In this document: positions 221-50,412 of the stretch, in pieces
Position numbering within the stretch: the stretch's first letter is position 1
How the letters are laid out: each line of letters starts with the position of its first letter
Assembly: GCA_014529615.1 (NCBI GenBank)
Contig: JAABVD010000002.1
Span: 1,750 to 55,741, forward strand
Direction: 5' to 3'
Length of the DNA stretch: 53,992 nucleotides
Source: Opitutia bacterium
GTDB taxonomy: Bacteria; Verrucomicrobiota; Verrucomicrobiia; Opitutales; UBA2995
The notes under the pieces: model-generated
What the model was told of the DNA's origin: nothing
The model's database searches: none
Seen by the model: only the letters and a program-made list of their open reading frames with translations
Position numbers and translations under genes: made by a program

Positions 221-3200
221 ATGTCCGCTACCAAAAACGAATTCGTCCACTTGCATTTGCATACTGATTACAGTCTGCTGGATGGAGCCTGCAGGATCGA
301 TCGATTGGCAGAAAGGGCAAAGGAATTGGGCATGCCGGCGGTGGCCATGACGGACCACGGCAATCTTTTCGGAGCCATCGATTTCTATAAGCCCCTCAAG
401 GGCGCCGGGTTGAAACCGATAATCGGCTGCGAGATCTACCTGGTGCACGATCACAAGATGGATGAGAAACCCCGCCGAAGGAGGAAGCGGACCGAGGACA
501 TAGGAGAATTGCCGGAGTATCGGGAATTGCAACCGGAGGAATTTCCCAAGCACCAGATTCACCACAAAACCGTGCTTTGTCGCGATTTCGAGGGATATCA
601 AAACCTGTCAAAACTGGTTTCCGAAGCCCATACGAAAGGACAATATTACAAACCACGCACGGACATGGAACGCCTGGCCGCCCACAGCAGGGGTTTGATC
701 GGGTTGAGCGGATGTATCAACGGGGTGGCCCCTCAGCACCTGCTCTACGGTAATTATGCGAAGGCCAGGGAGGTAACGGGGGAGTTCGTCGATATCTTCG
801 GCAAGGAAAACTATTTTATCGAACTCCACGATCACGGTCTTCAATTCCAAAGGAAAATTTTCCCGGGCTTGTTGAAGCTGGCTCGAGAATTCGACCTGAA
901 GGTGGTTTGCTCAAATGACGTGCACTACGTCAAAAAAGAGGACTGGCAGCCTCATGACGCGCTCCTCTGCATTCAAACCGGCCGGAAGCTGGCCGATGAC
1001 AATCGCATGAAGTACCCTTCCCGGGAGTTTTACCTGAAGAGCCGGGAGGAAATGCTGGAGGTTTTCCGGGAGGTGCCGGAATCGTTGGACAATACCCTGC
1101 TGGTGGCGGAAATGAGCGACCTGAAGATCCCCTTTGGCGGGAATCACTATCCGGTATTCGAAAAACCGGCGGAGGTATCGTTTCGGAAGGATCCGGACAA
1201 TTTCGACCGCATGCTGGAAATCTTCGTCTCGGAAAAGGAAAAGCTCAACCGGCAAAGCGGGACGGAGAACCCGGCCGAGGTGGACCGGTCCACCTTTGGG
1301 GCATGCCGCAATAACGGCCTCTTTCTTTTCGACCTGTGCAAAGGGGGGCTGAAGGAGCGTTACGGCATCGATTACGACCAAGTGCGAGGACCCGAGGCGG
1401 AAGCGCCCACCTCGGCGGAGGAAGGAAAGGGGGAAGCGCCCCCGGCCGAATCTCCGGAATTTGCCGCATTTCTTTGTTCGAAGCTGGAATACGAGTTGGC
1501 CATCATCGTGGGCACGGGATTTACCGACTACTTTCTCATTGTGTGGGATTTCATCGACTGGGCGCGGTCCCAGGGCATACCGATAGGCCCTGGGAGGGGA
1601 TCCGGGGCCGGAAGCCTGGTGTCCTTCGTGTTGAGGATCACGGATATCGAACCCCTGCGTTTCGGCTTGTTGTTCGAGCGGATGCTGAATCTGGCGCGCG
1701 TGTCTCCACCGGATTTCGACGTGGATTTTTGCATGCGGCGGCGGGATGAAGTGGTCCAATACGTGCGCGACAAATACGGGGAGGACGCCGTGGCCAACAT
1801 CATTACCTTTGGCAAATTCGGGGCCAAGATGGTGGTCCGCGATCTGGCCCGGGTGAACGATGTTCCCTACGCGGAAGCGGACCGGATGGCGCGGATGATC
1901 CCGGACGAACTCAATATTTCCCTGGAGGAATCGGTGGCAAAATCGGGAGAGTTGCGTGCGGAATTGGACAACAATCCGCTGGCGAGCTCCATTGTGGAGC
2001 AAGGTCAGGTCATCGAAGGGATGGTGCGCAATACGGGCAAGCACGCCTGTGGCATCATCATTGCCGATCAATCCATACACAACCTGATCCCGGTGACCAT
2101 GCAGGAGGGAGATTTGACCACTCAGTTTCCCAAGGGTCCGGTGGAGGACCTCGGCCTGCTGAAGATGGATTTCCTGGGATTGAAAACCCTGACGGTCATA
2201 TCCGACGCGCAGGAGAACGTCCGCCAAGCCAGGAACCTCCCGGATTTCGATATCGAAACCATCTCCCTGGACGATGCCAAAACCTTCGATCTGCTCAACA
2301 GCGGCGAGACTACGGGGGTATTCCAATTGGAGAGCGAGGGCATGCAATCGCTTTGCCGGCAAATCAGCCTGAGTTCCTTCGAGGAGATCATCGCCCTTAT
2401 CGCCCTCTACCGGCCCGGGCCGATGCAGTTCATTCCCCAGTTTGTCGAAGGGAAGAAGGATCCCTCCAGCCTGCGGGTTCCCCACCCTCTCTTGCAGGAT
2501 CTGGTGGGTGAAACCTATGGGGTGCTGGTCTATCAGGAACAGGTGATGGAGGCGGCCCGGATCATTGCCGGCTACACCTTGGAAGGGGCCGATATACTGC
2601 GCCGGGCCATGGGCAAGAAGATCAAATCGGTGATGGAGGCGCAAAAGGAGATCTTCGTCCATGGCGCCCGAATGCATAACGATATAGATGAGAGAACGGC
2701 CCTGGAAATTTTCGGCATCCTGGAAAAATTTGCCCAGTACGGATTCAACAAGTCGCACTCTGCCGCCTACGCGATTTTGAGTTATCGCACCGCCTACCTG
2801 AAGGCCAATTACCCGGTGGAATTCATGGCCGCGGTTCTTTCCAACGAACTGGGCAACGCGGACAAGGTGGCCCATTACATCGATGAATGCGCCGCCATGA
2901 AGGTAGCGGTCTTCGGGCCGGACATCAATATATCGCGGGAAAAGTTTACCCCGGTCATCGACACCGAGTCCGGACACGGGAGTATCCGCTTCGGATTGGC
3001 GGCCATCAAAGGCGTGGGTGACGCGGCCTCTCAAATGATCATTGCCAACCGGGAGGCGGAGGGTCCGTTTGAGGATTTCCATTCCTTCATGGACCGGGTC
3101 GACTCCAAGACGGTAAACCGGCGGGTTGTGGAATGCCTGATCAAATCGGGCGCGTTCGACGCTTTCGGGGAGGGCAGGCAAGCCCTGATGGAGGGGTTGG

Positions 3201-4072
3201 ACGTGGCTATCAGCGTCGCGGCCCAGCGTCAGCGCGACCGGGAACGCGGCCAGGAGTCCTTCCTGGACCTTCTGGGGGACCCCGATACTCTCAGCGGCAA
3301 CGGAAAGGGCATCGTTGTGAGCGAGACCGGGGATGGAGGGAAAATCCCTCAAATGCCCTTGGCGGAAAAGTTGCAATTTGAAAAGGAATTGCTGGGCTTC
3401 TACGTGTCGGGGCACCCCATGAGAGAGTTCGATGAACTGGCCCGGGACATAATCAGTTTTGATGCGGACAGGGCGAAGGAATTATCGGACCGGGCGACCT
3501 TCCGCTACTGCGGGGTCATTTCCAACGTGGTCAAAAAACTCTCGCGTCGGGATGACCGGCCCTGGGCCTTATTCAACATTTCCACCGAGTCGCACAATTT
3601 CAAGATGAACATGTTTGCCGAGGCTTTCGCAAGTTACGGACACATGTTGGTGGAAGGGAAAACTCTCGTGGCAAGTGGAACGGTAATAAACCGGGAAGCG
3701 GATGATCTGAGGTTTAGTGTGCGGGAGGTTTCCCCGCTTCGAAGCGCCATTCCCAAACTCATTCGGGAGGTGCGTTGGATCCTGAATGCGAAAGAAGACA
3801 CGGTGGATTTTCTACAAACCCTGCGCCGCGACCTGGATTCAAGGCGAGGGGGTAGCACGCGCTTGTTTATCGGCTTCCTTATTTCCGAAAATCAGGTGCT
3901 CTGGGGGGATATCGCCCCCGCCCTGACCTGGCTGGTTGAACCGAGGACCTTCACCGAGCTGAAAAACCATCCTTCGGTGGTTCAGGTCTCGACCACAACG
4001 GCTCCATTGGGGGAATTCGATTGGAACAACTCCTGGGAAGCGCCCAAGGGCGCGGGGAGAATGGTGGAGTGA
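221..4072 (+). CDS. dnaE: DNA polymerase III alpha subunit
   Basis: 1283-aa ORF with an ATG start. It has the N-terminal PHP motif [13 protein letters not shown] and the motifs [12 protein letters not shown] and [12 protein letters not shown] typical of DnaE. The last ~11 codons and the TGA stop lie inside repeat modules B and A. Confidence 0.98.
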
Positions 4073-4685
4073 TGGAGTGATGGAGTGATGGAGTGGTGGG
4101 GTGGTGGAGTGATGGGGAGGCGCGCTGGGGCGCGGGGGGAGAGGAGAGGACTCTCGCAAAGAGCGCATAGTAACGCAAAGATGGGGGAGATGCGCCCAAA
4201 AGCGCGAATGAGGAATTAGGAATTGGGGAGAGAGATCATGATCAGGATCACGATCAGGATCATGATTGGAGAGGGGGAGAGTTGCTGAGTTGCTGAGAGG
4301 GGAAAGTGTGTTTTTGCGCCTTTTGCGTTCTTTTGTGGCTATTTTTCCTATTTCCGATTGGCAGGTGGAAGTAGCTGTAGGAGCGGAATTATGCCGCGAT
4401 TTGGGTGAGGCTGTTTCGAGCAATCGCGGCGTAAAGCCGCTCCTACGTTTGAAAGCAGCCGAATATGTCTGCTCATCCCTTTGCGTCTCTTCGCGGGCTT
4501 CGCGAGAGTCTATTCCATAATCCTGTTCATCCTGTGCATCCATGTTTCACTTTGGAACCACCTGCCTCAGCAACTAAGCATCTTCGCATCTCTTATCCTT
4601 TGTGCCTCTGTGGTTAAAATGGGGAGAGAGGGGGGAGAGATCAGGATCATGATCACGATCAAGATCACGATTGGAGAGGGAGGGG
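4040..4685. repeat. Intergenic module mosaic R1 (B-A-B-J'-B-C-D-E-F-G-J-I-E'-K-D)
   Basis: Read directly from the sequence. The modules are (GGAGTGAT)n at 4063-4117 and GC hairpins at 4040-4054, 4119-4134 and 4192-4206. AATTAGG repeats lie at 4213-4226, (GATCAN)5 at 4234-4269 and (GAGTTGCT)2 at 4279-4297. The F block is at ~4307-4342 and the palindrome G at 4377-4446. J/I lie at 4478-4546, K at 4597-4622 and a second (GATCAN)5 at 4639-4674. The same modules recur at nine other loci. Confidence 0.85.
4377..4446. repeat. 70-bp nested palindrome (module G, REP-like)
   Basis: The arms are GTAGGAGCGGAATTATGCCGCGATT and AATCGCGGCGTAAAGCCGCTCCTAC. They are reverse complements except for the loops of an internal GCGG-N-CCGC mini-hairpin in each arm. 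Half copies lie at 10936-10960 and ~45731-45754. Confidence 0.8.
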
Positions 4686-4706: not shown

Positions 4707-5279
4707 TTAACGGGAGTAGGCGTGACACAGGGCCACACCGGCCGCGTCGGCCTCGTCAAAAGCCAGGGCTTCGCCGAGGTCGAGCATTTGTTTAACGGTG
4801 TGGGCGATCTGATGCTTGCTAGCAAGGCCGTATCAAACGACCGCCTGCTTGATGCGCAATGGGGGGTACTCGAATACAGGCTTTTTCAGGGTAGCGGCGG
4901 CGGCGATAGCGGCGCCCCGGGCGGCTCCCAGGATCAGGGCGGTCTTGATATTTTGCACAAAAATGGTCTGTTCCAGGGCAACCGAGGTCACGGAAAATTG
5001 CTCAATCATTTCGCTGGTGGACTTGTAAATATAGGCTAGGCAATCCGGCATGGAAGCATTTGCTTTCATTTTCAAGGTGGCGCTTGCCAGGAGCTTCGGT
5101 GGCGAAACTTCCAAGGTTACCACGGCCAGGCCGGTAGCTCTCAGGCTCGGGTCGATACCCAAAATGACTCCGGAAGCTCGGCGGCGGGCCCGGCCGACAT
5201 TGGGGGCTTGGGCTTTTGATGGGGGCAACTTGCCAGCCAATTTCATGGCCCATAAATCGCGGGTAGACGGCTTTGGCAT
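4707..5279 (-). pseudogene. ruvC: Holliday junction resolvase RuvC interrupted by one in-frame TGA (4833-4835)
   Basis: The upstream part carries the RuvC motifs ILGIDPSLRATGLAVV, LEQTIFVQN and LRIKQAVV. After the TGA the same frame continues as YGLASKHQIAHTVKQMLDLGEALAFDEADAAGVALCHAYSR and ends at TAA (4707-4709). The TGA sits where RuvC proteins have the conserved Gly of VVG.G.A.K.Q. Confidence 0.8.
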
Positions 5280-5364: not shown

Positions 5365-5555
5365 GGCGCGCTGGGGCGCGCCAATTAGGAATTAGGAGGA
5401 GGAAAGGCACAAAGGCACAAGGGCACAAAGGGGGAAGCGCGCTGGGGCGCGGGGGGAAGGGAATGGTGGAGTGATGGAATGGAGGAGAGAGGGGGGAGAG
5501 AGATCAAGATCACGATCAGGATCACGATCAGGATCAGGATCAGGATTGGAGGGGA
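5365..5555. repeat. Intergenic module mosaic R2 (B-C-L'-B-A-D)
   Basis: The hairpin GGCGCGC-TGGG-GCGCGCC is at 5365-5382 and AATTAGG repeats at 5383-5396. GGAAAGGCACAAAGGCACAAGGGCACAAAGG lies at 5401-5431 and a second hairpin at 5437-5451. GGAGTGATGG is at 5465-5483 and (GATCAN)7 at 5502-5549. The B-C-L'-B block matches the reverse complement of 44519-44612. Confidence 0.85.
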
Positions 5556-6349: not shown

Positions 6350-6365
6350 GTCGTTGAGGAGACTC

Positions 6366-6528
6366 CCTAACCCACATTTCTAACAAATTTTCTACTGCGC
6401 TCCGAAATATCGGCACTGGTGGGGACTTCGCTGGATTCGCGTCTTTGCAGGGTGTCGACCCAGCTTCATCCGCGCCTCTGCCCGAAGCCCACACCAGCAC
6501 TTGTGAGAAATGCGGGCTAACCCGCGAT
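6366..6528. repeat. TIR-bounded ~160-bp interspersed element, copy 1 (MITE-like or structured RNA)
   Basis: It aligns over ~105 nt nearly base-for-base with 41396-41500 (core CTACTGCGCTCCG.AAT..CGGCACTGGTG.GGACTTCG.TGGATTCGCG.CTTTGCAGGGTGTCGACCCAGCTTC). The ends CCCACATTTCTAACAA and TTGTGAGAAATGCGGG are inverted repeats. Confidence 0.75.
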
Positions 6529-6568
6529 GCCGGGCCATGTGTGTCCGAAATAACGCACCGGTCAGGTC

Positions 6569-10726: not shown

Positions 10727-10775
10727 ACCTGTCCCGGGTACATTCGATATTCCTTTGTTTTTCAGAATATTTAAC

Positions 10776-11063
10776 CACAGATTTCACGGATGGGAACGGA
10801 TGGGAAAGTTCGTTAAGCTCACGAATTAGGAATTAGGAATTAGGAATTGGGAATGGATTAGAGTTTCTGAGTTTCTGAGTTGCTGAGATGGGAAAGTGCA
10901 TTTTAGCGCCTTTTGCGTTTTTTTGTGGCTAAAAAGATCGCGGCATAAAGCCGCTCCTACAGTGCTGCCCCATCCGTGTCCATCCGTGAAATCCGTGGTC
11001 AATTTTCCACCACTCCACCTCTCCATCATTCCCTTTCCCTTCTCTTCCCGCGCCCTTAGGCGC
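10776..11063. repeat. Intergenic module mosaic R3 (H'-C-E-F-G half-H-A'-B')
   Basis: H' at 10776-10804 and H at 10969-10998 are ~29-nt inverted repeats (about 26/29 matching). They bracket AATTAGG x4 (10823-10856), GAGTTTCT/GAGTTGCT x3 (10861-10887), the F block (10896-10931) and half of palindrome G (10936-10960). The C-E-F-G order is the same as in R1. Confidence 0.85.
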
Positions 11064-16459: not shown

Positions 16460-16873
16460 CTAAATGTAATACATATCCTCGCTTTCCTCGGGCAGGAAGG
16501 ATTCCAGGGTATAACTCTTGGTTTTTTCCGATAGGGTTTCCACTACTTCGGACCAAACTTTTGCAACACCCCGCCCCGACCAACCGTTCGGCGCGAGGTT
16601 GATAGCCAACAGCTCTCCCTCCATGATCGAGACGATATCAAACAGGGTTATTTGGGCCGGTGGTTTGGCCAAACGGTAACCTCCCTGCTTTCCCCGCCGA
16701 CTGATAATCAAACCCCCGTTGCGGAGGTCGTTGAGGATCTGAACCAGATAATTTGCCGGGATTTCCTCGAGCTCGGCCAACTCGTCGATTCGGGAAAAGG
16801 GCCTGCTGCCGTAGGATCGGCTCAACTGGGCCAAAACACGGCAGGCGTACTCGACTTTCAAGGAGAGTTTCAC
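16460..16873 (-). CDS. Rrf2 (BadM/IscR) family transcriptional regulator
   Basis: The sequence is MKLSLKVEYACRVLAQLS...IPANYLVQILNDLRNGGLIISRRGKQGGYRLAKP, a winged-helix Rrf2 signature. The start is GTG. Confidence 0.9.
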   Translation of the reverse strand: MKLSLKVEYACRVLAQLSRSYGSRPFSRIDELAELEEIPANYLVQILNDLRNGGLIISRRGKQGGYRLAKPPAQITLFDIVSIMEGELLAINLAPNGWSGRGVAKVWSEVVETLSEKTKSYTLESFLPEESEDMYYI

Positions 16874-16950
16874 CGGAAAGACAAAATCTTGAGATCGGTG
16901 CCCTTGTAAACAAAATAGGGAATCGGTATGGTTACGACGCCTCCAAAGTC
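16784..16950. repeat. Copy A of the duplicated rrf2 5' end / rrf2-gyrB intergenic / gyrB codon ~20-25 segment
   Basis: It aligns with 18629-18912 at roughly 85% identity. A 117-nt internal gap (18780-18896) is bounded by the GGTTA microhomology. Copy A ends 1 nt before the glpD stop codon. Confidence 0.85.
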
Positions 16951-16951
16951 A

Positions 16952-18529
16952 TCATTCCGGGAGGTAACCCCTGGCCAACGCATTGAACGCCCTCACCTGC
17001 TCTTCGACCCAGTCGTCGCCGTGACCCAGTTCGCGCGCCATGACGCGTGCAACGGCGGGCGCGGCCGCCACGGCCGCCCTCGCGTTGAGGAAGAGTGCGC
17101 GGGTTCGCCGCGCGAGCACATCGTCGAGCTGAACGGCCATCTCACTTTTCGCCGCCCACGCGGCTTGGCTCAACCGGTAGGGCAGGCTCGGATGCATGAG
17201 GCGCGTCAGGCGCTCGTCCTCAGCCTCCAGTTGGCGGATGGCTTCGGCGTCGCTACCGTACATCCTCCAGGGGTCGAGAATGTCTCGCCGGGTGGAATAG
17301 CCGTGCAGCCGCAGCCTCGCCGTGACCGAATGGGCGCTGGACAGGCGGCCCACTTCGGCGGCCCTACCGACCGCGTCCTGCGCGACCTTACGGCAGGTGG
17401 TCCACTTGCCGCCGGTGACGGTGACGAGTCCGCGCCGGGAGACACTCACGCTGTGGTCGCGCGACAGCGCCGCGGTATCCTGATCGGGACCGGATGCCGT
17501 GAGACCCCGCAACCCGGCCCAGGCGGAGAGGATGTCCGCACGCCTGATCGTTCGCGTGAGATAGCCCCCCGCATGGTCGATCAGGTAGTCCACCTCGGCC
17601 GCGCTGGGAATCGGTTCCTGCGAGGGCTCTTCCACCGGGATGTCGGTCGTCCCGATAAGCACGTGGCCGTGCCAGGGAATTGCGAAGAGGATGCGCCCGT
17701 CGTCGGTCGAGGGGACCAGCAAGGCCGTGCGGCCCGGTAGAAAGGCGTTGCTCACCACGATGTGTACGCCCCGGCTGAGCATGACCGAGGGAGCCAGGCG
17801 CGGTTCGTCCATCCGGCGCAGCGAGTCGGCGAATGGACCCGCAGCGTTGACCACCACCGCCCCGCGCGCGACCCACTCGTTTCCGCCGAGGAGATCCCGA
17901 ACCTCGACCCCCTTCACTTTCCCCCGCGCTTCGACCAACCCCACCACTTCCGCGTAGTTCAGCGCGACGCACCCCAGGTTGGCGGCGGTGCGGATGAAGG
18001 CCCATCCCAGGCGGGCGTCGTCGAACTGCCCGTCGTAGAAGAGGACGCCGCCACGGAGATGGTGGCTGTGTAGCGTCGAGAGGTGTTTGAGGGATTCGCG
18101 GCGGCTTACCAGGCGCGAGGAGCCGAGGTTCCGGCCCAAGGCCAGGGCGTCGTAGAGCTTGAGGCCCAGTCCGTACCATGGGCGCTCCCACCAGCGATAC
18201 GCCGGCACCAACAGCGGCAGGCTCCGGACCAGATGCGGCGCGTTGGCCCGGAGGCGGCGCCGTTCATCCAACGCGCGGTAGACGAGCCCGATCTGACCCT
18301 GACGGAGGTACCGGACCCCACCGTGGATGAGCTTGGTGCTGCGGCTGGATGTGCCGCTCGTGAAATCGCCGCGTTCCACCAGGAGGGTCCGGTAACCGCG
18401 CGCCGAGGCGTCGAGGGCGGTGGCGAGCCCGATGCAGCCTCCCCCGACCACGATGATGTCCCAGGAGCGCAACTGTGTTGCCCGGTCGAGCATGTAGCTG
18501 CGGGGAAGTGCGCGTAAGGATTCGGACAT
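16952..18529 (-). CDS. glpD: FAD-dependent glycerol-3-phosphate dehydrogenase
   Basis: It has the dinucleotide-binding motif DIIVVGGGCIGLATALDASARG and SGTSSRSTKLIHGGVRYL. The ATG is at 18529; the ORF track extends to a TTG at 18565. GC is much higher than in the flanks: sampled 60-nt lines give ~68-77% against ~47% in gyrB. Long shadow ORFs appear in other frames. Confidence 0.92.
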   Translation of the reverse strand: MSESLRALPRSYMLDRATQLRSWDIIVVGGGCIGLATALDASARGYRTLLVERGDFTSGTSSRSTKLIHGGVRYLRQGQIGLVYRALDERRRLRANAPHLVRSLPLLVPAYRWWERPWYGLGLKLYDALALGRNLGSSRLVSRRESLKHLSTLHSHHLRGGVLFYDGQFDDARLGWAFIRTAANLGCVALNYAEVVGLVEARGKVKGVEVRDLLGGNEWVARGAVVVNAAGPFADSLRRMDEPRLAPSVMLSRGVHIVVSNAFLPGRTALLVPSTDDGRILFAIPWHGHVLIGTTDIPVEEPSQEPIPSAAEVDYLIDHAGGYLTRTIRRADILSAWAGLRGLTASGPDQDTAALSRDHSVSVSRRGLVTVTGGKWTTCRKVAQDAVGRAAEVGRLSSAHSVTARLRLHGYSTRRDILDPWRMYGSDAEAIRQLEAEDERLTRLMHPSLPYRLSQAAWAAKSEMAVQLDDVLARRTRALFLNARAAVAAAPAVARVMARELGHGDDWVEEQVRAFNALARGYLPE

Positions 18530-18628
18530 TGGTGTGGTCGGCTGCTTCCTGAACTTGAGTTCCAAACGCCCCTATTGGGATGGCAATCGTCCTGTGGCGG
18601 CAATGGTGCGGACGCTAATCATCCGCCG

Positions 18629-21360
<2,732 letters not shown>

Positions 21361-39635: not shown

Positions 39636-39704
39636 TAGCGATCTAGCAAAAGAGCCGAAGCACGGCCTGCAATCTAATTCTCACCGCCACCTGCCTCGAG
39701 ACGG

Positions 39705-40105
39705 AATGATGGAGTGGTGGGGAGAGGGAGTGATGGAGTGTTGGAGTGTTGGGGAGAATTGGGAGTGGATGGCTCTCAATCGTGATCTTGATCATGATCC
39801 TGATCGTGATCTCTCACCCTCATTCCTGAATCGCTCCTTTGGCGCATTCCCCTCTCCCTCCCTCACTTTGTGCCTTCCCTGTCACGCCGTAGACCATCGG
39901 CGGAGGCGGATGTGCCCCTGTGCCTTTCTCCCTCCTTTTGTGTTTTTTGTGCCCTTTGTGGTTATTTATCCGTGTTCATCCGTGGAATCCGTGGTTTCTC
40001 TCCCATTCTTTTTTCTCTTCTCCCTCTCTGTGCTCTGTGGCCTCTGTGGTTAAAATGCGGAGATTGGAAGAGAGATCACGATCAGGATCAGGATTGGAGA
40101 GAAAA
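39705..40105. repeat. Intergenic module mosaic R4 (A-D'-B'-L-H-K-D)
   Basis: GGAGTGATGG-type octamers lie at 39705-39760. An inverted (GATCAN)5 array has GATC at 39784, 39790, 39796, 39802 and 39808. GTGCC(T/C)(T/C)T octamers are at ~39868-39960, CCGTGTTCATCCGTGGAATCCGTGG at 39969-39993 and CTCTGTGCTCTGTGGCCTCTGTGGTTAAAATG at ~40026-40057. A (GATCAN)3 array is at 40074-40097. Confidence 0.85.
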
Positions 40106-41389: not shown

Positions 41390-41395
41390 TTGGTC

Positions 41396-41536
41396 CCTCG
41401 CCCGCATATCTCACAACTCTTCTACTGCGCTCCGGAATCCCGGCACTGGTGCGGACTTCGTTGGATTCGCGACTTTGCAGGGTGTCGACCCAGCTTCTCG
41501 TGACGAATTTTGTGAGAAATGCGGACTAGCCCGCAG
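41396..41536. repeat. TIR-bounded interspersed element, copy 2
   Basis: It begins 7 nt after the kamA-family stop codon. Its ends are GCCCGCATATCTCACAA and TTGTGAGAAATGCGGAC, inverted with 15/17 pairing. The core is nearly identical to 6385-6470. Confidence 0.75.
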
Positions 41537-41554
41537 GGCAGTATGGAGGGGAAA

Positions 41555-41634
41555 GGGAGTGGTGGAGTGATGGGGAGAATTGGGAATTAGGGGAAAGAGA
41601 TCACGATCAGGATCACGATCACGATCAAGATAAC
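41555..41634. repeat. Intergenic module mosaic R5 (A-C-D)
   Basis: The sequence reads GGAGTGGTGGAGTGATGGGG, then GAGAATTGGGAATTAGG. A (GATCAN)5 array follows with GATC at 41599, 41605, 41611, 41617 and 41623. Confidence 0.85.
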
Positions 41635-41737
41635 GGGAATGATTACGGGGGTGTAAAGGGTAACCGGAACTTGGCAGGGGATTGACCAGAGCAATCTTTA
41701 GTGGATATTTTGCATTTGGAATGCAAAATATGGAGTC

Positions 41738-44361: not shown

Positions 44362-44612
44362 GAGCGCCCAAGGGCGCGAGGAGAAGGGTGGAGTGATGGA
44401 ATGAGGGAGTGTTGGAATGATGGAGAGAGAGGAGAGAGATCACGATCAGGATCACGATCAAGATCAAGATTGAGGGTCAACCGTGTAACCCGTGGTTATT
44501 CCCTTTCCCCTCTCTTCCTGTGCCCTTGGACGCTTCCCCACTTTGTGCCTCTGTGCCTTTGTGCCTCTGTGCCTTTCTCCCCCCTAATTCCTAATTCGCG
44601 CCCTTGGGCGCT
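44362..44612. repeat. Intergenic module mosaic R6 (B-A-D-...-L-C'-B')
   Basis: GCGCCCAAGGGCGC at 44364-44377 and its complement GCGCCCTTGGGCGC at 44598-44611 bracket the element. Inside are GGAGTGATGG octamers and a (GATCAN)5 array (GATC at 44438-44462 in 6-nt steps). GTGCCTCT/GTGCCTTT octamers lie at ~44545-44575, followed by CCTAATT repeats. Confidence 0.85.
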
Positions 44613-45697: not shown

Positions 45698-46035
45698 GGC
45701 GCGCTGGGGGCGCCTTGCGCCTCTCCCCAATCGGGGGATAAACCCCCTCCTACAGCTAAAAACCACCATTCTTCAGCCATTTTTTCGATCACGATCACGA
45801 TCAAGATCAAGATCAAGATCAGGATTGAGAGCCAACCTGTCCTGCCGTGGAAAGAAATCAGTGGCTAGGGGTTAGTGGCGAGAAATAAAGGAGGGCGGAC
45901 ACTCACTGTCTGCGTGCGGTAACCCACAGGTAGGCTGTCCTCCATTGCCCTTCTCCCCCATTCCTAATTCCTAATTCCTAATTCGCGCCCGTGGGCGCCT
46001 TCATCTGTGGTTATTCTTCTCTCTCTCAGCAACTC
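45698..46035. repeat. Intergenic module mosaic R7 (B-G half-D-unique ~125 nt-C'-B'-K-E')
   Basis: GGCGCGCTGGGGGCGCC is at 45698-45714 and ATCGGGGGATAAACCCCCTCCTACAG at ~45731-45756. A (GATCAN)6 array has GATC at 45787-45817. CCTAATT x3 is at 45961-45982, GCGCCCGTGGGCGCC at ~45985-45999 and CTGTGGTTATTCTTCTCTCTCTCAGCAACTCC at 46004-46035. The last ~75 nt are also the 3' end of the SRAP gene. Confidence 0.85.
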
Positions 46036-46725: not shown

Positions 46726-46957
46726 GGAGGCGCGCTGGGGCGCGCCCCTTTGCGTCCATCGCGAGCTTTGCGAGAGTCTATTCCATAATTCTGTGCATCC
46801 TGTGCATCCATGTTCCATTCCTAATTCTTAATTCGCGCCCCTGGGCGCCTTCCCATCCGTGTTCATCCGTAGATTCCGTGGTTTCTCTCCCATCCAATTT
46901 TCCCTTCTCCCTCTCTGTGCTCTCTGGGTCCTCTGTGGTTATTCTTCTCCCTCTCAG
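46726..46957. repeat. Intergenic module mosaic R8 (B-J-I-C'-B'-H-K)
   Basis: GGCGCGCTGGGGCGCGCC is at 46729-46746, J/I (CCTTTGCGT...GCGAGAGTCTATTCCATAATTCTGTGCATCCTGTGCATCCATGTT) at ~46747-46813 and CCTAATT repeats at ~46819-46832. GCGCCCCTGGGCGCC is at ~46834-46848, CCATCCGTGTTCATCCGTAGATTCCGTGG at ~46853-46881 and CTCTGTGCTCTCTGGGTCCTCTGTGGTTATTCTTCTCCCTCTCAG at ~46913-46957. Confidence 0.85.
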
Positions 46958-49995: not shown

Positions 49996-50109
49996 CGGAG
50001 CAAGGGGCGCTGTGCGACACTGGGCTCCGGAGTTTAACGCCGTTGGCGTAATAGCCAAATGTTTGAATCGGTTGATCGGGCCAATAGATGGGCTCTTTGG
50101 CAGGCCCAT

Positions 50110-50176
50110 AATCGTGATCTTGATCTCTCTCCTTTTCCCCAATTCCTAATTCCCAATTGGCGCGCCCCAGCGCGCC
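50110..50176. repeat. Intergenic module mosaic R9 (D'-C'-B')
   Basis: The sequence is AATCGTGATCTTGATCTC (2 GATC), then CCAATTCCTAATTCCCAATT, then GGCGCGCCCCAGCGCGCC at 50159-50176. This is the reverse complement of the B-C-D order seen in R1. Confidence 0.85.
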
Positions 50177-50351: not shown

Positions 50352-50412
50352 GGGGAGGCGCCCGAGGCCGCCTCCCCTCTCCTTCTCTGTGCTCTCTGCG
50401 ACCTCTGTGGTT
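50352..50412. repeat. Intergenic module mosaic R10 (B-like hairpin-K)
   Basis: GGAGGCG-CCCGAGGC-CGCCTCC is followed by CTCTGTGCTCTCTGCGACCTCTGTGGTTA. Confidence 0.8.

Follow-up and report, generated by a model that had tools for sequence, protein, structure and literature searches.

Mosaic intergenic repeats of GC hairpins, REPs, and micro-arrays in an Opitutales bacterium

Mosaic intergenic repeats as a kind are already known from other phyla. In Escherichia coli and other Enterobacteria, bacterial interspersed mosaic elements (BIMEs) combine palindromic units, the repetitive extragenic palindromes (REPs), with conserved linker motifs; they are extragenic and dense, are found near the 3′ ends of genes, and differ between strains in copy number. 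The Neisseria intergenic mosaic elements (NIMEs) are repeat blocks bounded by dRS3 inverted repeats, the short tandemly repeated repetitive (STRR) sequences of heterocystous cyanobacteria are intergenic arrays of tandem heptanucleotides, and the BOX elements of Streptococcus pneumoniae have the structure boxA-(boxB)n-boxC. The genome architecture of the Verrucomicrobiota has, to our knowledge, been little studied. GTAG-tagged REPs were reported to be highly abundant in Opitutus terrae by Di Nocera et al. (PMC3733652), where NIMEs are mentioned as well. Here we analyzed a 53,992-nt stretch of contig JAABVD010000002.1 from an uncultured bacterium of the order Opitutales (positions 1,750 to 55,741 of the forward strand; in the following, the window), in which ten intergenic loci, R1 to R10, are composed of a shared set of short sequence modules. 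We consider these loci to be lineage-specific interspersed mosaic repeats of the Opitutales, of the BIME/NIME type, with a probability of about 0.6.

The mosaics consist of building blocks of three kinds: short hairpins made of G and C only (module B), GTAG-tagged REP palindromes (module G), and micro-arrays with 2 to 13 copies of a 6- to 10-nt unit. The micro-arrays comprise A, (GGAGTGAT)n; C, (AATTAGG)n; D, (GATCAN)n; E, (GAGTTGCT)n; and further L, H, I, K, F, J, and the purine linkers. The features of BIMEs named above all apply to the Opitutales mosaics. These differ from BIMEs in being composed mostly of short-period tandem arrays rather than of alternating REPs, in a B hairpin that carries neither a GTAG nor a CGTC tag, and in a very strong polarity of the nonpalindromic parts with respect to the upstream gene. 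Measured against the definition of a BIME, B and G do recur with conserved partners, but the mosaics are mostly tandem arrays and the B units do not alternate regularly. With NIMEs they share large mosaic regions, interleaved families, palindromes bounding blocks (here B...B, e.g., B-C-L′-B, in which the prime marks inverted orientation), and recombination, but there is no sequence relation, a role as phage-integrase target is not known for the Opitutales mosaics, and we know of no description of micro-array content or 3′-end polarity for NIMEs. The (AATTAGG)n arrays resemble STRR sequences as dispersed intergenic heptamer arrays, whereas phylum and units are different, and in the window the heptamer is fused to a GC hairpin and accompanied by arrays of 6-, 8-, and 9- to 10-mers. 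Like BOX elements and miniature inverted-repeat transposable elements (MITEs), the mosaics are modular with a variable number of internal units, fold into long hairpins, and in the case of R3 have 29-nt terminal inverted repeats and a MITE-like size; they differ in having more module types in variable order, and neither a target-site duplication nor a parent transposon was seen. As far as Rfam and the searched literature show, the vocabulary, the hairpin-heptamer unit, the make-up almost entirely of micro-arrays, the proportion of intergenic DNA occupied, and the strict 3′-end polarity are new, whereas the GTAG-tagged REP component is already known.

Ten mosaics and their composite blocks

The original prediction, which had been made from the sequence of the window, described ten loci that share a small noncoding vocabulary of reshuffled modules with repeated neighbor pairs. 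Direct reading of the sequence showed the described modules to be present at all ten loci, and the shared vocabulary was supported by pattern annotation, all-against-all comparison, and permutation. The loci sum to 2555 nt or 4.7% of the window, close to the predicted 5%. They account for 2442 of the 6038 nt of intergenic DNA (40%) and are present in 9 of the 22 intergenic gaps of at least 50 nt. When the window was annotated by pattern matching with 13 module definitions, all 58 matches fell within the ten loci, and coding sequence contained none. Independently of module definitions, 14-mers recurring more than 200 nt apart covered 2582 nt, clustered at the ten loci, compared to 174 to 402 nt in five shuffled sequences. 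The window furthermore contains five C-free runs of 54 to 70 nt, all five of them within mosaics, whereas the longest such run in shuffled sequences was 45 nt. Three boundaries had to be corrected: R3 is delimited by inverted copies of H, R4 starts at about 39698, and R5 starts at about 41540. The loci are composed as follows.

4040-4685, R1: between dnaE (plus strand) and ruvC (minus strand)
4040-4266, R1, first half: B hairpin at 4040-4053, (GGAGTGAT)n at 4065-4115, B hairpin at 4120-4135, (AATTAGG)n at 4206-4224, (GATCAN)n at 4234-4266
4279-4617, R1, second half: (GAGTTGCT)n at 4279-4297, F at 4316-4341, inverted REP pair at 4375-4448, J-I at 4477-4549, K at about 4590-4617
4375-4448, R1, REP doublet forming a hairpin (REPIN): two inverted GTAG-tagged REPs, GTAGGAGCGG..GCCGCGAT / ATCGCGGC..CCGCTCCTAC, with the GTAG ends facing outward
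4621-4671, R1, end: purine linker plus (GATCAN)n
5365-5555, R2: between ruvC (minus strand) and TauE (minus strand); order B, (AATTAGG)n, (AAAGGCAC)n, B, A, purine linker, (GATCAN)n; short allele
10774-11063, R3: between a SIS/CBS gene (plus strand) and a UPF0047 gene (minus strand)
10774-11056, R3, order: inverted H copies at 10774-10802 and 10971-10999 around C, E, F, and one REP (10939-10960); then an inverted A array and a B hairpin at 11043-11056
39698-40105, R4: between carA (minus strand) and a radical-SAM gene (plus strand); order A array, inverted D array, L, H-K block (39968-40052), D array
41540-41635, R5: A, C, and D arrays 3′ of the radical-SAM gene and of a copy of the N repeat
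44362-44612, R6: between a methylase gene (plus strand) and Na_Ca_ex (minus strand)
44362-44612, R6, order: B, A, purine linker, D, pyrimidine linker, decayed B, L, inverted C, B
45698-46035, R7: between Na_Ca_ex (minus strand) and SRAP (minus strand)
45698-46035, R7, order: B, REP-linker-(GATCAN)n block (45728-45830), unique DNA, inverted C array, B, K
46726-46957, R8: between SRAP (minus strand) and DoxX (minus strand); order B, J-I block, inverted C, B, H-K block
50007-50076, minus strand: truncated copy of the M repeat, adjoining R9
50110-50176, R9: inverted D, C, and B, i.e., B-C-D on the minus strand; starts 35 nt 3′ of a tRNA-Leu gene
50352-50412, R10: GC hairpin (50352-50377) and K, between tRNA-Leu (minus strand) and an SBP_5 gene (plus strand)

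Most modules had been described as micro-arrays with periods of 6, 7, or 8. Tandem Repeats Finder (TRF) recovered these periods, namely 6 for GATCAN, 7 for AATTAGG, and 8 for GGAGTGAT, GAGTTGCT, and GTGCCTNT; the arrays H, I, and K have a period of 9 to 10 instead. H, I, K, F, J, and L each contain about three copies of an 8- to 10-mer with the core CAC(A/G)(G/A)A on the purine strand, as recognized by eye and partly by TRF, and these six modules may be diverged relatives of one another. Tandem arrays with a period not divisible by three were about 2.4 to 3.9 times as dense as in control loci, which is supportive but weak.

The original prediction needs revision as to the units: what recurs is a composite block of 70 to 230 bp with unique linker sequence included, and not a free-standing module of 10 to 30 nt. 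The block types are B-(AATTAGG)n, B-(GGAGTGAT)n-purine linker-(GATCAN)n, REP-linker-(GATCAN)n, J-I, H-K, and F-spacer-REPIN. The predicted neighbor pairs J-I and H-K proved to be real in the all-against-all comparison, with an identity between copies of 90% over 73 nt for J-I and of 90% over 87 nt for H-K. Copies of the B-A-linker-D block were 77% identical over 115 nt, and dispersed copies of F-spacer-REPIN 91% identical over 141 nt. The REP-linker-(GATCAN)n block of R7 was 86% identical over 91 nt to a locus (L047) of another species. In a permutation test of oriented neighbor pairs in the window and in 11 loci from metagenome-assembled genomes (MAGs), B followed by C was observed 9 times compared to 1.8 expected, G followed by D 5 times (1.15 expected), B followed by A 4 times (0.8 expected), and the G−/G+ pair 4 times (0.37 expected); C followed by E, E followed by F, and J followed by I were likewise more frequent than expected.

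Directly before 19 of 49 C arrays there was a perfect stem of G and C with at least 5 bp, compared to 2.5% of random positions, and 7 stem types were counted. At least six types of stems precede (AATTAGG)n, among them GGCGCC, GCGCGC, GCGCC/GGCGC, and GGCGCGC. As the stem sequence varies among these types, the B hairpin is kept as a structure and not as a sequence.

Module G, predicted to be a nested palindrome, is more than that, namely an inverted pair of GTAG-tagged REPs. The single unit is an imperfect palindrome with an unpaired terminal GTAG, GTAGGAGCGG..GCCGCGAT, found at 4377-4398, 4425-4446, and also 10939-10960. It reads ATCGCGGC-(a)taaa-GCCGCTCCTAC(AG) and fits the REP layout TCGCGGN-taaa-NCCGCTCCTAC. 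The REP consensus of Pseudomonas putida is TTCGCGGG-taaa-CCCGCtCCtaCaggg, i.e., TTCGCGGGtaaaCCCGCtCCtaCaggg (PMC11585281). Layout, loop, and the GTAG tag on the other strand are common to both, and a compensated change in the stem distinguishes them. Among the GTAG-tagged REPs (GTAG-1 in Pseudomonas; families reported in Opitutus terrae, PMC3733652), G has in common with the P. putida REP the stem and taaa loop followed by TCCTAC(AG), and singletons occur beside inverted doublets with outward GTAG. Such doublets were found in R1 of the window and in L047, L059, L078, and L123; the copies are extragenic. In contrast to the GTAG REPs described before, G is only one of about 12 modules and forms part of longer blocks in which its partners are fixed (F-spacer-REPIN and REP-linker-(GATCAN)n). 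Judged by its sequence, module G is a member of the known GTAG superfamily of REPs and REPINs. The window, with its 54 kb, contains about 4 copies, and about 13 were counted in the MAG loci (88 kb); both are fragments of genomes. Ten open reading frames (ORFs) adjacent to REPs in the MAG loci encode ordinary housekeeping proteins or a PIN-domain toxin. In L117, a 141-amino-acid PIN-domain (VapC-like) ORF (3109-3534, minus strand) is located between two inverted G copies, at the position that the gene for the REP-associated tyrosine transposase (RAYT) occupies in other genomes.

Variation between strains and occurrence in other genomes

We compared the window with strains that are 98 to 99.6% identical to it, using 84.6 kb of strain-to-window alignment. 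The 6.7 kb of mosaic sequence contained 39 indels (5.8 per kb) and the remaining 77.9 kb only 7 (0.09 per kb), a 64-fold difference in density; 6 of the 7 nonmosaic indels represent one indel in an unrelated repeat. All mosaic indels that were read comprised whole repeat units, with lengths of 6, 7, 8, 11, 12, 16, or 24 nt. In R1, indels of 8, 11, and 12 nt were found within arrays, and in R6 indels of 6 and 16 nt. Three strains differ in the length of the A array of R5, for which about 3, 7, and 13 units were counted. Unit number thus changes between close strains, as in variable-number tandem repeats (VNTRs), and the arrays are mostly located 3′ of genes. Substitutions amounted to 8.2 per kb in mosaics, 7.7 per kb at third codon positions, 7.4 per kb in other intergenic DNA, and 2.1 per kb at second codon positions, i.e., the mosaics accumulate substitutions at the neutral rate.

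R2 also differs between strains by an entire block. In the long allele, present in L123, L124, and L125, an extra block of about 390 bp with the order B-C-E-K′-F-REPIN-H-C′-B-K-linker lies between two D arrays. The short allele, present in the window, L128, and L129, has a single D array whose left flank corresponds to the left flank of the first and whose right flank corresponds to the right flank of the second D array of the long allele. This polymorphism is most simply explained by recombination or slippage between the direct D arrays. With respect to MITE traits, R3 has inverted repeats (H′/H), and the only block polymorphism, the one in R2, is bounded by D arrays.

In more distant relatives, entire mosaics are missing or exchanged. 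L121, with a protein identity of about 85 to 88%, has no modules in 15 kb, and the gap between the radical-SAM gene and carA measures 228 nt instead of the 507 nt of the window. R4, located in this gap, is absent in L121, and it is also absent in L122 (about 88% identity), which has diverged modules at the site of R6. In L132 and L135 (94 to 95% identity), two parts of the gap between SRAP and Na_Ca_ex have been kept, namely the 60 nt nearest to the promoter and, immediately behind the stop codon, the hairpin-plus-heptamer anchor, whose stem has changed; everything in between differs. The gap of L135 orthologous to R6 contains H′, a hairpin, and an M-type element instead. These results show a turnover of modules in orthologous gaps within a clade at the genus level.

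The possibility that the mosaics are an artefact of assembly or sequencing confined to this contig, for which one might cite that the window opens with a 76-nt poly-C run that is itself an artefact, can practically be dismissed, since 12 contigs assembled independently with several assemblers from several samples, one of them a long-read contig, contain the same mosaics, as do three MAG species.

Among the matches listed from a scan of a genome collection with (GATCAN)x4, modules other than D were common to three Opitutales MAG species (11 loci). The same listed matches include many phyla, and as D arrays occur in many unrelated phyla, D alone is not lineage specific. In 768 kb from other phyla, D, which was the selection pattern, and three stray matches were found, and the other modules were essentially absent. 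The junction of hairpin and heptamer array was present in 13 further metagenome contigs with 51 to 65% G+C, beside arrays such as (GGTTCAG)n and (ATTTCGG)n, which shows that the mosaic style is broader than this clade. The metagenome contigs L136, L137, L142, L147, and L148, one of them labeled as human gut, share a longer conserved context, ...GAATGAAAGCTYTGCGCGAATTAGGAATTAGGAAT..GAAGGTGGCGGCTTYGCCGCGAATATATATG.., around (AATTAGG)n, and (GGTTCAG)n and (AGTCACN)n arrays adjoin (AATTAGG)n in them, which suggests that repeats of the hairpin-plus-heptamer kind are widespread in related phyla.

The original prediction had left open whether the family is already cataloged. This holds true for module G with its described superfamily, whereas Rfam does not contain the mosaics, none of which gave a match at the gathering score or at an E value of ≤1. 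Plasmid and phage collections searched with R1 gave no match, and a literature search for repeat elements of the Opitutales yielded no paper. The mosaics show no regular repeat-spacer pattern as in CRISPR arrays, and no cas genes were found among the larger ORFs of the window scanned with Pfam or NCBIfam.

Orientation at gene 3′ ends and interpretation

Polarity was counted with crude gene calls (ORFs of at least 150 amino acids) in the window, the 11 MAG loci, L132, and L135. Of the 20 non-D modules that lay nearest to a gene 3′ end, 19 were purine rich on the sense strand (binomial P = 4e-5). Modules abutted gene 3′ ends in 20 and gene 5′ ends in 4 cases, and when all modules were counted, the split at 3′ ends was 23:9. 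An exception is R2, which as a whole is antisense to both flanking genes and for which we have no explanation. Orientation had been predicted to differ between loci; the modules are indeed reshuffled, but at 3′ ends their orientation is not free. In convergent gaps each arm trails its own gene, which shows that the bias follows the direction of the gene and not that of replication. Because of this arrangement, the whole of R6 forms a single long hairpin, which is imperfect (z = −5.45). In R3 the inverted H ends pair as an outer stem (z = −3.3).

Two trivial causes of the polarity were considered and rejected. Overextension of ORFs through pyrimidine-oriented arrays does not account for it, as the modules within called genes were all located in spurious ORFs spanning mosaics, and three-frame stop codons do not account for it either, as the C arrays are polar even though TAA occurs in every frame of (CCTAATT)n as well. 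The dnaE and SRAP reading frames do extend into mosaics, where they stop in A and C arrays; that of SRAP passes through K and B of R7.

The B hairpin lies 0 to 35 nt from the stop codon. From the convergent, divergent, and tandem gene contexts of the loci, the original prediction had concluded that a simple terminator or promoter role does not fit. Canonical terminators with hairpin and U tract they are indeed not: in a terminator scan of the window, the hairpin followed immediately by a U tract that defines an intrinsic terminator was flagged at only two B-type hairpins. Terminator-like sites were only marginally more frequent in the window than in shuffled sequences (13 versus 10.1 ± 3.4 and 23 versus 14.7 ± 3.9), and a promoter scan of the window gave no meaningful enrichment. 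A role at gene ends, however, cannot be set aside on grounds of context in view of the 3′-end polarity of the modules, and by analogy a polar role at transcript 3′ ends is possible.

Whole units of the arrays are gained and lost between near-identical strains, which is consistent with replication slippage, and gain or loss of multimodule blocks takes place between direct repeats of a shared module, as expected from recombination or slippage between D arrays. If the loci are interspersed mosaic repeats of the BIME/NIME type, the composite blocks would reach further gaps through copy-and-paste transfer or ectopic gene conversion; a RAYT-type Y1 transposase would presumably move the REP component in trans, with some mover for the other blocks. 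The mosaics would be tolerated almost only in gene 3′ flanks and in one orientation, where the B hairpin could serve as a transcript 3′-end structure, either as an exonuclease barrier or as a noncanonical terminator, as REPs do in E. coli.

Several observations speak against this interpretation. The block polymorphism of R2 is explained equally well by deletion, and neither target-site duplications nor clean empty sites were recognized. No RAYT or other transposase gene was found among the genes flanking the loci in the window or among the 10 ORFs next to REPs in the MAG loci. The near-universal micro-array make-up of the modules is not accounted for, nor is the opposite orientation of the D arrays, seen in 6 of 7 cases at 3′ ends. 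A U tract follows a B-type hairpin only twice in the window (50377-50352 and 45716-45696, both on the minus strand), so that the argument for a 3′-end role comes from position and polarity. Finally, the strong polarity and the C-free sense strand represent more order than purely selfish or neutral DNA predicts.

This order is the starting point of an alternative in which the elements in the 3′ flanks are functional through their strand asymmetry, either as directional insulators or as a protein-binding platform, a view which we regard as rather unlikely. The sense RNA behind a gene consists of a GC hairpin and then of C-free arrays rich in G and A. As insulators, the elements would give antisense RNAs that are G-free and C-rich for 50 to 70 nt and then form this hairpin just before the gene, i.e., a Rho loading site plus pause, which would stop antisense or read-through transcription entering genes. 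As a platform, the GGA-rich sense arrays (UGGAGUGA, UAGGAAUU, CAGGAUCA, CACGGAUG, ACAGGAUG) would be bound by an RNA-binding protein of the CsrA type, whose consensus we take the GGA motifs to resemble. The 19:1 polarity at 3′ ends, the convergent arms that make the bias track transcription, the confinement of the long C-free runs to mosaics, and the B-C anchor that keeps its position at orthologous gene ends with changing stems all speak in favor of such a function. It is at odds with the neutral substitution rate, with the wholesale exchange of module content between close lineages, with the antisense position of R2, and with the opposite bias of the D arrays. The claim that the mosaics as such are gene-end directional insulators against antisense or convergent read-through, or that their GGA arrays recruit an RNA-binding protein, seems quite improbable to us; if it were true, slippage-prone arrays would be a cheap and self-renewing source of such tracts, and the 19:1 polarity would be kept by selection.

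We find it very doubtful that the arrays are DNA binding sites for a nucleoid-associated, replication, or methylation-related protein organizing the chromosome. The sites would be the three-unit modules of 9 to 10 bp (H, I, K, F, and J, with starts such as TTAACCACA) together with (GATCAN)n, and it fits that the unit length is near one helical turn, that TTAACCACA has one mismatch to what we take to be the DnaA box, TTATCCACA, that D arrays carry a GATC every 6 bp, and that the window contains a DNA methylase gene. Unit number, however, varies freely between strains and the sequence drifts at the neutral rate, a double-strand site predicts no polarity with respect to gene direction, and no candidate protein was identified. 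GATC was also considered as a motif that is avoided or otherwise special in the window, but elsewhere in the window it is not unusual (observed/expected, 1.41).

An origin by independent births of microsatellites in each gap, with a vocabulary shared through compositional convergence, is hardly tenable: slippage does expand and contract the arrays and (GATCAN)n is found in many unrelated phyla, but copies share nonrepetitive flanks and linkers over 70 to 141 nt, and the same units recur with the same neighbors across species.

With interspersed mosaic repeats as the preferred interpretation, a single repeat system makes up about 40% of the intergenic DNA in the 54 kb of the window, and length differences between co-occurring strains arise mainly from it. 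Such mosaics will break short-read assemblies and confuse strain-resolved metagenomics, and they could serve as high-resolution strain markers in the manner of VNTRs. The fusion of GC hairpin and heptamer, the vocabulary consisting nearly wholly of micro-arrays, and the near-absolute orientation rule at 3′ ends make them a testable case for the question whether interspersed mosaic repeats are nothing more than selfish DNA or in addition influence antisense transcription and the ends of transcripts.

Genomic context and other repeats of the window

The genes flanking the mosaics are ordinary chromosomal genes, such as dnaE, ruvC, recF, gyrB/gyrA, carA, an ExbB/ExbD/TonB cluster, RNase P RNA, and two tRNAs. 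A cyanobacterial origin, to which GATC-rich arrays and heptamers had pointed at first, was rejected, since photosynthesis genes are lacking in the window and its modules are shared only with Opitutales MAGs. The named homologues of the Na/Ca exchanger come from MAGs of Opitutales and Verrucomicrobia; exact-protein look-ups for the methylase and P0003 gave no match. The C run at positions 1-76 of the window is almost certainly an artefact of sequencing or assembly at the contig end. The ruvC gene (4707-5246, minus strand) has an in-frame stop at codon 138 (...KQAVV*YGLAS...), whereas the strain contig L123 reads GYGRAS and is intact; the stop is either a sequencing error or marks a strain-specific pseudogene.

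Two further repeats were noticed. Repeat N, of about 190 nt (TTCTACTGCGCTCCGGAATCCCGGCACTGGTGCGGACTTCG...GTGAGAAATGCGGACTAGCCCGC), is located at 6364-6530 and 41394-41550 of the window, in L033 (1140-1330), and in L121 (5115-5300), 3′ of two genes. It is conserved across species; the other strains have an internal segment of 27 or 48 nt, able to form a hairpin, that both window copies lack. Repeat N had no Rfam match and could be an uncharacterized small RNA or an element of the 3′ untranslated region. Family M, of about 95 nt with three hairpins (ACGCCAACGGCGT, CCCAGCGTCGCG.AGCGCACGCTGGG, and GAACCCCAACGGGGTTC), is multicopy in Opitutales MAGs and often adjoins B-C units. Besides the truncated copy at 50007-50076 of the window, it was found in L033 (4440-4610, 4700-4850, 6915-7060, and 7060-7170), L075 (3380-3500), L078 (1265-1400), L117 (2650-2800), and L135 (about 2155-2250); no convincing Rfam match was obtained.

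A direct duplication of 154 nt with 88% identity (16784-16937 and 18629-18782), together with repeated GGTTACGACGCCTCCAAA, surrounds a gene at 16952-18565 (minus strand) for a glpD-like FAD oxidoreductase. This gene is located immediately upstream of gyrB in a 1-kb stretch with 68.8% G+C, compared to about 55% elsewhere, and looks like an inserted foreign gene with a duplicated target region. Between the radical-SAM gene and Na_Ca_ex, the segment 41738-44351 contains genes for an AAA_14/DUF4143 ATPase and an N6_N4 DNA methylase; L122 and L135 have these two genes, L121 does not, and the segment represents a small variable island that is possibly defense related. In the whole window, CTAG (observed/expected, 0.07) and GTAC (0.19) are strongly avoided outside the mosaics, and AATT is enriched (1.97).

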